This document shows positions 32,090 to 35,942 of a stretch of DNA of 48,490 nt, piece by piece. The notes beneath the pieces were generated by a model. It was not told the DNA's origin, did not search any database, and worked only from the letters and a program-made list of their open reading frames with translations. Origin of the DNA: Lambdavirus PDP110P1. Both the position numbers and the translations under genes were made by a program. The stretch lies in the sequence record OZ035751.1. One strand, written 5' to 3'. Each line of letters begins with the position of its first letter. The first letter of the stretch is position 1.

Positions 32090-32526
32090 GCTGCACCTCC
32101 TTCGCGAAGCTGAGTGGCGAATTCATTAAGCTCAGCTAACAATTCATCAGCCCACTGAGCCGCTCTGCTTGCGTAGAGCATCTCCACACCCTGCGCCCGG
32201 ACTTCAGCCAGGAAAGCATCTGTGGCTGGGGTGTCTGATTGCAGAGACTTTGCGCGATAGTCATTCCACCCTCTTGCATACATGGGATTAACTTGCACTC
32301 CATCTTTTACGCAATATGCCTGACCTCCACGGTTGATAACCTTGATTTCGTCCATAGCGCCAGACTTCAGCCCCGCATTCTCCGCCGCCAGCGCCGCGCA
32401 CTTGGCCTCCGCTTCAGCAAATTTACGCACCAGATATTCAGCGTTTGTTTCGTTAACCTTTAAATCACTTGGAATGCATTTACCTTTCAGAAATCCATCC
32501 ATCTCAATTAGTGACATTTGTTTCAT
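32086..32526 (-). CDS. hypothetical protein
   Basis: ~146 aa from ATG 32526 (track ORF from 32544). Confidence 0.4.
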
Positions 32527-32687
32527 TTTTTCCCACTCCGCCACATCGCATTCAGATATTTGTTTTGATTTACTGACGGAAAAGAATTTCTCTTAAGTAA
32601 TTCCTCTCTCGATGGCATTGGCTTTACGCGTTGGCGAATAATCATTTCTGCCGGAAGAATGCCGGGATTGTATGCAAGTCCTCTCAT
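32523..32687 (-). CDS. small hypothetical protein
   Basis: 54-aa ORF with RBS AAGAGGAA; stop overlaps next start; below the track size cutoff. Confidence 0.3.
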
Positions 32688-32703
32688 GGTAAATTCCTCT
32701 TTG

Positions 32704-33018
32704 TTAATTTATTCGTATGCCTGCTCTTTCTTCATCGAGTTTTTTTAGCTTGTATCGCATAGCTCTTACTGAATAAATTGAGCGGCAGGTTGCAATTGCT
32801 ATTTCTTCTGCGGAGAACTTACCGAAAAGTGATACTTCGGCTCTTGTCCAGCGTCTTCCACGAAGTCGGCTAACAATGTCAGCGCCAATCCTTGTTGCTT
32901 TCGCCATAACTGCTTTTTCAGTCCTTTCCAGTTTTTCAGCAATAACTTCAACTGGCATTGTCGCCGATACTTCGCGCAAGAAATCGACTTCCCATTTCTC
33001 CCATGGAGCCTTTTTCAT
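32704..33018 (-). CDS. hypothetical protein
   Basis: 104-aa ORF. Confidence 0.45.
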
Positions 33019-33029
33019 AGGCGATACCG

Positions 33030-33518
33030 TTATTTGATAAGAAGTGAAGGTTTACCAACCTTGAGTTGAGCACCGGGAATATTTATTCCTGCTTTTAGTT
33101 GGTGCTTGATTGCCAACTTGTCGGCTTTAATTGTCGTTTCAAACTCAACGTAATCAGGAGGAAGGGCGCTTGAGTCGATGATTTCTACAGTTTCTGACGG
33201 TTTGCGGATTGTTACCTGGTGAATACCTGCTCTAATCTTTTTCTTGCCAACCATTTCAAGCGATGAGGCTATATATGACATAATGCTATCAATCTTATTT
33301 TGAATTACTGCGGCTCGTTCATTTAGTGACTTTGCCTCTTCCTTGAGGCGTTCAGCATAACCAGATTCATTTTTAATAATGGCAAGAAGTTGCTCTATTT
33401 TATCGGTAAATTCTCCTTCCATGCCTTCTATTGTGTCAGCAATCATCTCTGGCTCTAAATCTGAATCCATCAATTTTGCGTATTCATTGGCAATTTCATA
33501 TAGTTTGCTCACTGGCAA
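33030..33518 (-). CDS. Gp157-like protein (RecT-associated)
   Basis: 162 aa immediately upstream of RecT-like gene, the usual pairing. Confidence 0.45.
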   Translation of the reverse strand: MPVSKLYEIANEYAKLMDSDLEPEMIADTIEGMEGEFTDKIEQLLAIIKNESGYAERLKEEAKSLNERAAVIQNKIDSIMSYIASSLEMVGKKKIRAGIHQVTIRKPSETVEIIDSSALPPDYVEFETTIKADKLAIKHQLKAGINIPGAQLKVGKPSLLIK

Positions 33519-34407
33519 CCTCCAGTTTTGCTTTGCATTCTGCGTAAATGGCTTGTACGTTCTGCTGCAATTTCATTCCAGATGTCAGGCGATATGCTTC
33601 TGCAAAATATCGCTTCAAATCATCCATGTTTTCTGCCTGAGCCATTTCATCACAAAGAAGTTGAGCTTTTTCCATAATTTCCTGCTGGCGTTTCCGTTCA
33701 TCTTCGCGGATATCTTCCTCTGATTTGTGCGGCATAACTGGTTCAGTCCATACACCTTCTTCTTCGTTTAGTACGTGAATAGCACTATCAAGACGTGATG
33801 CCTTAGGCCAATACTTGCTTGCACGCTTTACGACCGTCTTTCGCGCCATCTCATTCCAGTGATTTACCCATGGTCCTTTATCGCTGAATGCCGCCTTGCT
33901 TGTTTTCCTTACAGCCTCAATTTCAGCCAGACTCATCTCTTCCGTTAGATAATCACCTGCTGGCGTCTTAACTGTGCAGTAAACGCCAACGATATCACCA
34001 CGATCACCGAAGGCGTTGTATTTATGGGTTGGTGCTTTATCAAGCCCGTTTGACTCATAGGTATCGTTAGCATGAACAAGTTTTGCCTGACCCCATGAGA
34101 TAACACCAGACTCCATTGCAATATGGAGCAATCCCATATAACTGATATCAAGGCACACCATGCCGTCGCGCGGAACCAGATAAGCCAGTTTGCTAGCCGG
34201 GTTTAAGGTGATGCCGATCGCCGCAACATTGATGATGGCGTTCTGTGCGCTGGTTGGATTTGCCAGTGCTGTTTTAGCCAGGTAATCATTTTTCTGGAAA
34301 TACTGAATTGCAAACTGGCTTTCCTTAGCCCATGTCACCGTCTGTTCAGTCAATGCTCCGCAGAATAACTGCTCTTGCTGTTTAACGAATTCAACGATAT
34401 TGCTCAT
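33496..34407 (-). CDS. recT: RecT-family single-strand annealing recombinase
   Basis: 303 aa; segment GPWVNHWNEMARKTVVKRASKYWP matches the conserved RecT region. Confidence 0.8.
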   Translation of the reverse strand: MSNIVEFVKQQEQLFCGALTEQTVTWAKESQFAIQYFQKNDYLAKTALANPTSAQNAIINVAAIGITLNPASKLAYLVPRDGMVCLDISYMGLLHIAMESGVISWGQAKLVHANDTYESNGLDKAPTHKYNAFGDRGDIVGVYCTVKTPAGDYLTEEMSLAEIEAVRKTSKAAFSDKGPWVNHWNEMARKTVVKRASKYWPKASRLDSAIHVLNEEEGVWTEPVMPHKSEEDIREDERKRQQEIMEKAQLLCDEMAQAENMDDLKRYFAEAYRLTSGMKLQQNVQAIYAECKAKLEVASEQTI

Positions 34408-34715
34408 GCTGCTTCTCCAAAAATGTGTCTGCGTTTGAATATTGCGAAGGCATATTCAGCCTTAACTCTTTTGGTTATTGCATCCCAGAACCATTCAGCG
34501 GCTTTTTCCTGATAGTCACAGTCATCATCTTCCAGCCAGTCGATAGCGTCCTTAGTGTGTTCATCTGGCTTATATGAGCGAAGCATTTCGCTTATTGGGT
34601 CACAACGTTTGCAGAGGCGATCAACTTCACTGTTGATTCGTTCGTAATCTTCATCAGTAAAACTTGCGATGATTTGCGATATTTCACGCTTATCATTCAG
34701 AGTCAGAATCATCAT
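34404..34715 (-). CDS. hypothetical protein (upstream of recT)
   Basis: 103-aa acidic protein, ATGA-coupled to recT. Confidence 0.45.
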   Translation of the reverse strand: MMILTLNDKREISQIIASFTDEDYERINSEVDRLCKRCDPISEMLRSYKPDEHTKDAIDWLEDDDCDYQEKAAEWFWDAITKRVKAEYAFAIFKRRHIFGEAA

Positions 34716-34800
34716 CTTTCTCCTGTTCTTTGTGCTGATTGAGCATTTTGTTCATCTGACGAATGAATTCTTCGTCTGACCAGTTATCTGTAAAACTCAT
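34693..34800 (-). CDS. small hypothetical protein
   Basis: 35-aa ORF, start overlaps upstream stop (CCATGA). Confidence 0.3.
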   Translation of the reverse strand: MSFTDNWSDEEFIRQMNKMLNQHKEQEKDDDSDSE

Positions 34801-34967
34801 GGACGGCCTTGTTGTTTCAAAATATCCCAAAGCTTTTCGAGCAAACTTTTCATTCTTGGTTGTTTAAAGTCTGCTCCGGTTAAAATATTTTTTCGTGAAT
34901 GCTGCACCGATAAAATCGGGTTGAAAGGGCGAACCGATGCCGCCCCTGCAATAGCGAACTGTTGCAT
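34797..34967 (-). CDS. cIII-like small protein (putative)
   Basis: 56 aa; RBS GAAGGAG; N-terminus MQQFAIAG and C-terminal LWDILKQQG resemble lambda CIII. Confidence 0.35.
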   Translation of the reverse strand: MQQFAIAGAASVRPFNPILSVQHSRKNILTGADFKQPRMKSLLEKLWDILKQQGRP

Positions 34968-35030
34968 AGGATGCTCCTTCTGTTTGATTGCATAACGAAA
35001 ACGCCTCGAGTGAAGCGTTATTGGTATGCA

Positions 35031-35057
35031 TATAAAAAAGCCCTCACATTAGAGGGC
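35031..35057 (-). terminator. rho-independent terminator
   Basis: on - strand: GCCCTC-TAATGT-GAGGGC followed by TTTTTTAT. Confidence 0.6.
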
Positions 35058-35193
35058 AAAGAAGATTTCCAATAATCAGAACAAGTCGGCTCCTGTTTAG
35101 TTACGAGCGACATTGCTCCGTGTATTCACTCGTTGGAATGAATACACAGTGCAGTGTTTATTCTGTTGTTTATGCCAAAGATAAAGGCTACCA

Positions 35194-35394
35194 TCAGGCA
35201 GCCTTGTTATTCTGTTTACCAATTTCTCTGGCAATCATTGCCGTCGTTCGTATTGCCCATTTATCGACATATTTCCCATCTTCCATTACAGGAAACATTT
35301 CTTCAGGCTTAACCATGCATTCCGATTGCAGCTTGCATCCATTGCATCGCTTGAATTGTCCACACCATTGATTCTTATCAATAGTCGTAGTCAT
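35194..35394 (-). CDS. ral: Ral-like restriction-alleviation protein (putative)
   Basis: 66 aa, four-Cys motif CGQFKRCNGCK…C; same size and position relative to N as lambda ral. Confidence 0.5.
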   Translation of the reverse strand: MTTTIDKNQWCGQFKRCNGCKLQSECMVKPEEMFPVMEDGKYVDKWAIRTTAMIAREIGKQNNKAA

Positions 35395-35464
35395 ACGGAT
35401 AGTCCTGGTATTGTTCCATCACATCCTGAGGATGCTCTTCGAACTCTTCAAATTCTTCTTCCAT
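35378..35464 (-). CDS. small acidic peptide (putative)
   Basis: 28-aa ORF MEEEFEEFEEHPQDV…, RBS GAGGTG, overlaps the ral-like start. Confidence 0.3.
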   Translation of the reverse strand: MEEEFEEFEEHPQDVMEQYQDYPYDYDY

Positions 35465-35572: not shown

Positions 35573-35600
35573 ACAATAAAAAACCCACCGAAGTGGGCTA
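35573..35600 (-). terminator. rho-independent terminator (tL1-like)
   Basis: on - strand: CCCAC-TTCG-GTGGG followed by TTTTTTATT, just after the 114-aa gene stop. Confidence 0.65.
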
Positions 35601-35942
35601 TGACCATTTTTTATTTGGATTTCGTTGGTGAGCGTGATTAACAACTCTGTGCATTACATCCTCATATTTTTCATCTTCAATTTTTTCGACATCGCGAGGA
35701 AATGGTGTTGCTAATGCTTTGTCAACTTTATCCATTGGGTCTTCATTAATCTTATATTCAGGACCGTCATCTATAGCATTAAATCCAGGTGTTACACCGT
35801 TTTTTAATGCATATGCTATCCTCTTTTCCCATCTCGCTATTCTCCTCCTGTCTCGAGATGTAAGACCTCTATCAGATACTTTTCTGTTTTGTCCGCGGTC
35901 AGGATTAACATAAATAGTCTTTTTCACCATAAGCATACTCAA
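35598..35942 (-). CDS. hypothetical protein (first gene after N)
   Basis: 114-aa hydrophilic ORF, ATGA overlap with N. Confidence 0.45.
   Translation of the reverse strand: MSMLMVKKTIYVNPDRGQNRKVSDRGLTSRDRRRIARWEKRIAYALKNGVTPGFNAIDDGPEYKINEDPMDKVDKALATPFPRDVEKIEDEKYEDVMHRVVNHAHQRNPNKKWS

Follow-up and report, generated by a model that had tools for sequence, protein, structure and literature searches.

Which protein is encoded immediately upstream of recT in the early-left (pL) operon of Lambdavirus PDP110P1, and does it act on the host nuclease RecBCD? The window analysed here is the whole 48,490-nucleotide (nt) sequence of this lambdoid phage (record OZ035751.1), whose early-left region is ~97% identical to those of HK140, mEpX1, Gally and Kapi1. 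A first-pass annotation had described an acidic protein of 103 amino acids (aa) at this place, had assigned it to the slot of a host-nuclease inhibitor, and, because it seemed to resemble neither lambda Gam nor P22 Abc, had proposed a different anti-RecBCD or anti-defence factor. An anti-RecBCD role is also our best guess, but the predicted fold, size, charge, order of helices and DDDxxFQE motif agree with those of Gam, so that a far-diverged Gam that has escaped notice is more likely than a different type of factor. On balance, we think it probable that this target gene adds a third sequence type, hitherto cryptic, to the Gam-fold inhibitors of RecBCD and that its product acts like lambda Gam.

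The target is a genuine gene and not a chance open reading frame (ORF), because it matches PHROG 3486, a family of unknown function, at an E value of 1e-58 and because 82 full-length homologues keep its length, helices and acidity. The 103 aa are counted from the first of two ATG codons that stand side by side; the second, at 34712, gives 102 aa (34404..34712). Because nearly all homologues begin at the second ATG (MILT or MRLT) and the spacing of the AGGAG at 34724-34720 fits it better than the first, the product is likely the 102-aa protein. Its acidity was confirmed, with an isoelectric point (pI) of 4.73, 24 D+E versus 16 K+R and a net charge of −8, and so was the overlap with recT, the TGA and ATG codons sharing a 4-nt ATGA at 34404-34407 (GCAGCATGAGC). 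Nothing meaningful was found with the single protein or the family profile in Pfam, NCBIfam, PADLOC or the PDB sequences; there were no matches of the target to Pfam and no PADLOC defence families at E ≤ 0.1. Matches to ribosomal protein S15 and TipA (E > 0.02) were set aside as helical noise.

The family to which the target belongs is small and confined to Enterobacterales. Homologues were found by tblastn in 18 phage records (the HK140 group, SEN22, ENT47670 and Midgardsormr38), with identities to the target of 93% in Salmonella SEN22, 48% in Cronobacter ENT47670 and 40% in Erwinia Midgardsormr38. A profile search together with an exhaustive hidden Markov model (HMM) scan of 1.84 billion representative proteins recovered 71 clusters at E < 1e-3, nearly without exception stand-alone proteins of ~100 aa, and the members with a named organism were from Enterobacterales in every case. 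The 82 full-length homologues are 89-110 aa long (median 102 aa) and their identity falls to 18%, while the helix pattern is kept along with length and acidity; the pI lies between 4.3 and 5.5 in all 82, and the median net charge of −9 equals that of Gam. The database names we met for the family were "hypothetical protein" throughout.

The position of the gene is that of lambda gam, with cIII and a small ORF before it and the annealase after it, so that the earlier assignment to an inhibitor slot was borne out and, by the exchanges and the range of modules described below, strengthened. Phage Dewey is 95% identical to the window over 32413-34410 (the 104-aa gene, Gp157 and recT), its RecT is 97% identical, and shortly before the recT start codon the similarity is lost; there Dewey has a genuine Gam (PF06064, E 1.5e-50). 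A second exchange is seen between ENT47670 and phi80, whose RecT and Exo proteins are 81% and 86% identical, the former phage carrying a family member where the latter has gamL. Ahead of orthologous recT genes, the target family, gam and gamL thus replace one another. SEN22 shares only 34404-35118 (the target, a 35-aa ORF and cIII), with homology that begins at the target stop codon and a different recombination module downstream of the shared block, and these three genes move together as one mosaic block. Neither Gam, GamL nor Abc2 was detectable in the phage genome or in 24 family-bearing loci, whereas the control loci of phi80, Dewey, HK75 and P22 all gave matches.

Across the family, the gene adjoins recombination genes in 14 of 15 distinct contexts and lies upstream of them in 13, directly except for two, which have a 292-nt gap (loci L017/L018) or an intervening 49-aa ORF (L028). 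The partners are of at least five module types: RecT with Gp157 (the phage studied here, L010 and L017), RecT with YqaJ exonuclease (ENT47670, Midgardsormr38, L011, L022 and L028), a DUF3799 PD-(D/E)XK nuclease with or without RecT (SEN22, L024 and L027), a 167-aa protein with YqaJ (L007 and L025), and a Sak4-type AAA_24 module (L013-L015), at the end of which the family gene stands. One protein, P0064, occurs unchanged ahead of two different modules, and the presence of the family is independent of the type of recombinase. Where they are recognisable, cIII and Kil or a small ORF precede the family gene (the phage studied, Midgardsormr38, L007, L024 and L025), as in the lambda order cIII-kil-gam-annealase-exonuclease; in L025 the order is cIII, a Pfam Lambda_Kil gene, the family gene, the 167-aa protein and YqaJ. 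For several members cIII is not adjacent, and recombination genes still follow directly. It is the gam slot, the exchange with gam and gamL, and the association with at least five module types that make an anti-RecBCD role the best guess.

A structure prediction, which the first-pass annotation had called for, gave a confident and Gam-like model. The AlphaFold2 model, built from a 44-sequence alignment, is all-helical (predicted local distance difference test score, pLDDT, 88.4; predicted template modelling score, pTM, 0.72), with helices at residues 5-16, 20-34, 39-47, 53-63 and 65-101. A model of a lambda-type Gam made by the same method has helices at 2-37, 41-54, 59-68 and 70-90, and thus the order is equal and the boundaries agree within a few residues when 5-16 and 20-34 of the target are taken to correspond to 2-37 of Gam. 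As in GamS, the model has a long N-terminal helix followed by three helices, the last of which is a long C-terminal one. The best PDB match of the predicted fold was lambda GamS, ranked first of 48,164 chains, a candidate that had been foreseen from the gene position.

The resemblance to lambda Gam (GamS; PF06064; PDB 2UUZ, 2UV1 and 5MBV) extends to size and charge, both being proteins of ~100 aa with a pI of ~4.7-5.0 and a net charge of ~−9. In numbers, the target (102 aa, pI 4.73, net −8) stands beside GamS (98 aa, pI 4.99, net −10) and phi80 GamL (93 aa, pI 4.70, net −7), and by overall charge it is, like them, small and strongly acidic. The profile of the 82 family sequences was also compared with the Gam profile by hhalign, as a single comparison fixed beforehand; the score was 21.6 (P 0.0015, probability 17%) on the motif DDDx[DE][FY]QE..AE, which lies at the start of the last helix in both proteins, and none of 300 column-shuffled Gam profiles reached it (mean 10.8, standard deviation 2.1, maximum 17.8). 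The aligned core pairs L60-EDDDCDYQEKAAEWF of the target with A65-FDDDVEFQERMAEHI of GamS. A relaxed alignment is co-linear over 82 columns and pairs P39 with P40 of Gam, placing a proline-containing break after helix 1 in both. In the N-terminal helix, D7, E10 and I14 of the family (78-89% of the 82 sequences) pair with D8, E11 and W15 of Gam, of which D8 is nearly invariant and the other two are invariant in the Gam alignment. In the cryo-electron microscopy structure of RecBCD with GamS, this helix plugs the single-stranded DNA channel of RecB, and acidic side chains of GamS mimic duplex phosphates (PMC5218532). When lambda GamS was searched by tblastn against the whole phage genome, its best match, which was non-significant, fell inside the target ORF. 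The earlier statement that the protein resembles neither Gam nor Abc therefore stands only for ordinary sequence searches; as regards Gam, it fails for predicted fold, size, charge, helix order and the DDDxxFQE motif.

Several observations weigh against reading the target as a Gam-like inhibitor. The Pfam Gam HMM (PF06064) matched none of 44 family members even at E ≤ 10, although it recovered Dewey Gam, the positive control, at E 1.5e-50. The hhalign probability of the family against Gam is only 5-17%, while Gam against GamL reaches 88% (E 3e-6), and against single GamS or GamL sequences it is 2-3%; judged by these comparisons, the family is more remote from Gam than GamL is. Foldseek gave no significant match in the full PDB (E > 2); since 6 of its 54 weak matches were GamS chains, including the top probability (0.41) and the top TM-scores, this is a weak concordant signal only. 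Against BFVD it returned one unnamed 107-aa match (probability 1.0, TM 0.59) and none on Gam or GamL, which is uninformative. The model itself departs from GamS by a kink in the N-terminal helix (residues 17-19), by a last helix that is longer by ~15 residues, and by greater compactness, with a pTM of 0.72 compared with 0.35 for a Gam monomer model. In addition, with a putative MuGam-like protector of DNA ends already in the module, a second inhibitor is not strictly required, and the main text of a 2025 survey of lambdoid recombination (Rec) modules (Zheng, Casjens, Davidson, Amundsen and Smith; PMC12315714) does not count the target gene as anti-RecBCD in HK140 or SEN22.

The redundancy point is tempered by Dewey, in which a true Gam stands alongside the same Gp157, and the survey reports HK639 with both GamL and MuGam. 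As far as its main text shows, the survey distinguishes four lambdoid anti-RecBCD classes (Gam, GamL, Abc2 and MuGam), cites HK140 as having RecT with MuGam only, classes the HK140 counterpart of Gp157 as MuGam type, lists the SEN22 module type as without an anti-RecBCD gene, and finds few genes of unknown function inside canonical Rec modules; to that extent, the target family went unrecognised in it. In that main text, Chi is also reported to be mostly missing from phages that have both a Rec module and an inhibitor of RecBCD (Zheng et al., PMC12315714). In the window, the Chi octamer (GCTGGTGG) is absent from both strands of the 48.5-kb genome, an observation that we count in favour of the Gam reading; base composition alone would predict ~1.5 copies, and the density of the E. 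coli chromosome many more.

By analogy with lambda Gam, from which dimerisation, the choice of RecBCD and the way it is blocked are all inferred, the small acidic protein of four or five helices would form a dimer that sits where DNA ends enter RecBCD, mimicking DNA and plugging the site sterically. Exonuclease V would thereby be switched off, linear and rolling-circle phage DNA would survive, and the RecT pathway of the phage would then take over. The cluster of cIII, the target and recT would lie on an antiterminated transcript from pL. Translation of the target would be coupled on both sides, to the preceding small ORF and to recT, and the C-terminal codons of the target would also be the place where ribosomes bind for the recombination gene that follows.

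Unlikely, in our estimate, is a combined reading in which the family is a third Gam-fold lineage, so diverged that its interaction surface is different, which either blocks RecBCD while evading the guard systems that sense Gam-type inhibition (retron Ec48, P2 Old or a Gabija-like logic) or hits another DNA-end-processing or defence complex. On that reading, the target might act jointly with the co-translated 35-aa Gp33/Arf-like peptide, and its obligatory coupling would turn the gene into a "leader cassette" that is portable between recombination modules.

We consider it unlikely that the protein mimics DNA as Gam does but acts chiefly on another host nuclease or a DNA-sensing defence instead of RecBCD, such as SbcCD, KwaB of Kiwa, or a restriction or Gabija-type system. 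The evidence of fold, charge and position would fit equally, the divergence from Gam is extreme, and the putative end protector Gp157/MuGam is already present, leaving room for specialisation. Lambda Gam acts on SbcCD too. A preprint on Kiwa (PMC11785009) reportedly discusses Gam. The GenBank record of phi80 labels gamL an inhibitor of RecBCD/SbcCD. However, replacement by true gam or gamL in orthologous modules suggests functional equivalence, the hosts are all RecBCD-bearing Enterobacterales, and nothing points to a specific alternative target.

The junction with the next gene bears on another alternative, an accessory recombination factor like P22 Arf or Abc1 that helps the annealase or nuclease, or loads them on DNA, and does not inhibit a host enzyme. 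We compared the junction strings of 10 family-bearing loci (the phage genome and L001-L003, L007, L010, L022, L024, L025 and L027). In eight, GGAG or GGAGG lies within the last codons of the family gene (typically E-A/V-A), 6-9 nt before the next start; the remaining two junctions have GAGG (L010, L024) or GGGG (L027). The stop codon of the family gene and the start codon of its neighbour share bases in eight loci and are directly adjacent in one, and the pattern is independent of which gene comes next. Translational coupling to the recombination module thus appears to be a family trait, and the conserved C-terminal tail is probably constrained as the ribosome-binding site of the next gene and not for protein function. 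The C-terminal E-A-A, which is also the least confident stretch of the model, is less likely to be a functional protein motif than the product of a nucleotide-level constraint on GGAG(G).

Such tight coupling to the first recombination gene would suit an accessory factor, as would a gene always found within or beside recombination modules and an upstream neighbour with an Arf-like WSDEEFI motif. Yet the same or nearly the same protein serves unrelated partners (RecT, DUF3799 nuclease, the 167-aa protein and Sak4), whereas one would expect a specific cofactor to move along with its partner, and the Gam-like fold would be left unexplained. The target does not co-evolve with recT, since mosaic homology breaks off on the target/recT boundary or a few bases from it; for this reason, and because unrelated modules are served, we reject a RecT-specific partner, and we regard an accessory role as improbable. 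That the fold match is coincidental and the protein is a helical host-takeover or lysis-lysogeny factor tied to cIII and the small ORF is very improbable, since GamS ranked first among the chains after being named beforehand from gene position, the profile score exceeded 300 of 300 shuffles, several members without an adjacent cIII still directly precede recombination genes, and lambda gam itself adjoins kil and cIII.

Set beside the named systems, the divergent Gam that we favour shares with lambda Gam co-linear helices, the D/E/hydrophobic spacing of the N-terminal helix, a gene position in the pL operon that follows cIII/kil and precedes the annealase, and, in Dewey, a place upstream of a nearly identical RecT. 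Unlike Gam, it has a C-terminal helix whose conserved H..E-A/V-A end also serves as ribosome-binding site for the gene that follows, and it has no long N-terminal extension. The 93-aa phi80 GamL (PHI80_39, "host RecBCD/SbcCD enzymes inhibitor") is likewise acidic and lies directly upstream of a RecT-type annealase, which is 59% identical to RecT of the phage studied and 81% to that of ENT47670; it occupies the same slot as the family members of ENT47670 and Midgardsormr38. The main text of the 2025 survey reports a Gam-like predicted fold for GamL despite its divergent sequence (PMC12315714). In contrast to the target family, GamL is detectably homologous to Gam; hhalign of the family against GamL gives a probability of 2-3%, and a tblastn search with GamL found in the phage genome only an unrelated site at E 0.73. 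GamL also differs in being paired with an antitoxin-like agt/mog gene, of which no homologue was found in the phage genome (best E 1.8 for phi80 Agt by tblastn). P22 Abc2, which accompanies Abc1 and Arf, is a small RecBCD-modulating protein from the same operon region of P22-like phages, but its gene lies downstream of the annealase in P22 and the protein binds RecC and hijacks RecBCD instead of blocking it; BLASTP showed no sequence similarity of the target to Abc2 (E 8.8) or Abc1 (E 3.8). Mu Gam and Siphovirus Gp157 represent putative end protection in the same module, supplied by the neighbouring gene at 33030-33518, and differ from the target in size, fold family and mechanism, since DNA ends are bound and not the enzyme.

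Lambda Gam is a textbook phage counter-defence protein and a tool in recombineering, base editing and the labelling of double-strand breaks, and a sequence-unrelated family with its predicted fold and its slot would widen the repertoire of RecBCD inhibitors. It suggests that some lambdoid modules scored in the main text of the survey as having no anti-RecBCD gene (SEN22 type) or MuGam only (HK140 type) do carry one, and rescoring them would affect the link reported there between the presence of an inhibitor and Chi depletion. The family would also supply naturally varied proteins from which to learn what surfaces of Gam are indispensable and what surfaces are detected by guard systems such as retrons and P2 Old, and it shows that fold can serve to annotate the gam slot when sequence searches do not. 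The finding serves annotation and the analysis of how Gam and RecBCD recognise each other; it introduces no new principle and should strike specialists as plausible rather than startling.

The genes around the target lie on the minus strand, in the order Nun-like gene, 28-aa ORF, ral, terminator-like hairpins, cIII, 35-aa ORF, target, recT, Gp157/Mu-Gam-like gene and 104-aa gene (Table 1).

Table 1. Features of the pL operon around the target gene, with positions in the window.
Feature	Position	Strand	Description
Nun-like gene	35598-35942	-	First gene in pL; PHROG 5632, E 5e-71
28-aa ORF	35378-35464	-	PHROG 16060 (unknown function), full length, E 7e-19
ral	35194-35394	-	Between the 28-aa ORF and cIII
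Two terminator-like hairpins	35000..35057	-	Upstream of cIII; consensus scan only
cIII	34797-34967	-	56 aa; PHROG 550, E 1e-22
35-aa acidic ORF	34693-34800	-	kil/arf slot; overlaps target start by 23 nt
Shine-Dalgarno AGGAG of target	34720..34724	-	Inside 3' end of 35-aa ORF; read from sequence ACAGGAGAAAGATGATG
Target gene	34404..34715	-	102/103 aa, acidic, all-helical; PHROG 3486; predicted Gam fold
Target/recT coupling junction	34404..34418	-	Last codons G-E-A-A hold GGAG, able to serve as recT Shine-Dalgarno
recT	33496..34407	-	Single-strand annealing protein; Pfam RecT E 3.7e-32; PHROG 148
Gp157/Mu-Gam-like gene	33030..33518	-	Putative DNA-end protection; Pfam Sipho_Gp157 E 1.8e-36; weak Phage_Mu_Gam E 0.009; PHROG 253
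104-aa gene	32704..33018	-	After Gp157; accompanies the module also in SEN22, Dewey and a Salmonella prophage

The first-pass annotation placed a chain of coupled 35-, 56- and 28-aa ORFs before the target. The 35-aa ORF, through its overlap with the target, and the 56-aa ORF, which is cIII and overlaps the 35-aa ORF through ATGA, belong to such a chain; the 28-aa ORF lies outside it, because ral and a 226-nt spacer holding the hairpins stand between it and cIII. The 28-aa product (MEEEFEEFEEHPQDVMEQYQDYPYDYDY) is extremely acidic, and its ORF overlaps the start of ral. Residues 1-16 of the 35-aa product (MSFTDNWSDEEFIRQMNKMLNQHKEQEKDDDSDSE) are identical to gp33 of phage HK75 (56 aa), and a [WF]SDEEFI motif is common to the 35-aa ORF and P22 Arf (WSDEEFI), while the C-terminal halves are wholly different. 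HK75 gp33 was reported to set off the P2 Old abortive system by itself and was proposed as a new RecBCD inhibitor or manipulator (bioRxiv 10.64898/2026.07.10.737580, 2026). Downstream of recT, the Gp157/MuGam-like gene, overlooked in the first-pass annotation as a second putative end-protection gene, is putatively the second anti-RecBCD gene of the module.

The 104-aa gene carries the PHROG label D5-like regulator. In Gally it is labelled "Anti-RecBCD protein 1, similar to P22 Abc1", but this is unsupported: BLASTP against P22 Abc1 gave no match at E ≤ 10, and tblastn did not recover P22 among 50,697 phage records. SANT/Myb-type helix-turn-helix-like repeats were seen by eye in both proteins, and a remote kinship is possible. 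The first gene of the operon fits the HK022 Nun-like transcription termination factor family rather than the N antiterminator. Left of the early operon and between ORFs, an sRNA-Xcc1 match (RF02221; 29423-29512, minus strand; 65.4 bits, E 1e-9) is the sole Rfam match at the gathering threshold in the phage genome. Among the other family-bearing loci, the 167-aa protein (L007 4300-4803, L025 723-1226 and L026 477-980) lies between the family member and the YqaJ exonuclease and has no Pfam match; because it holds the usual place of the annealase, it may be an unrecognised single-strand annealing protein.

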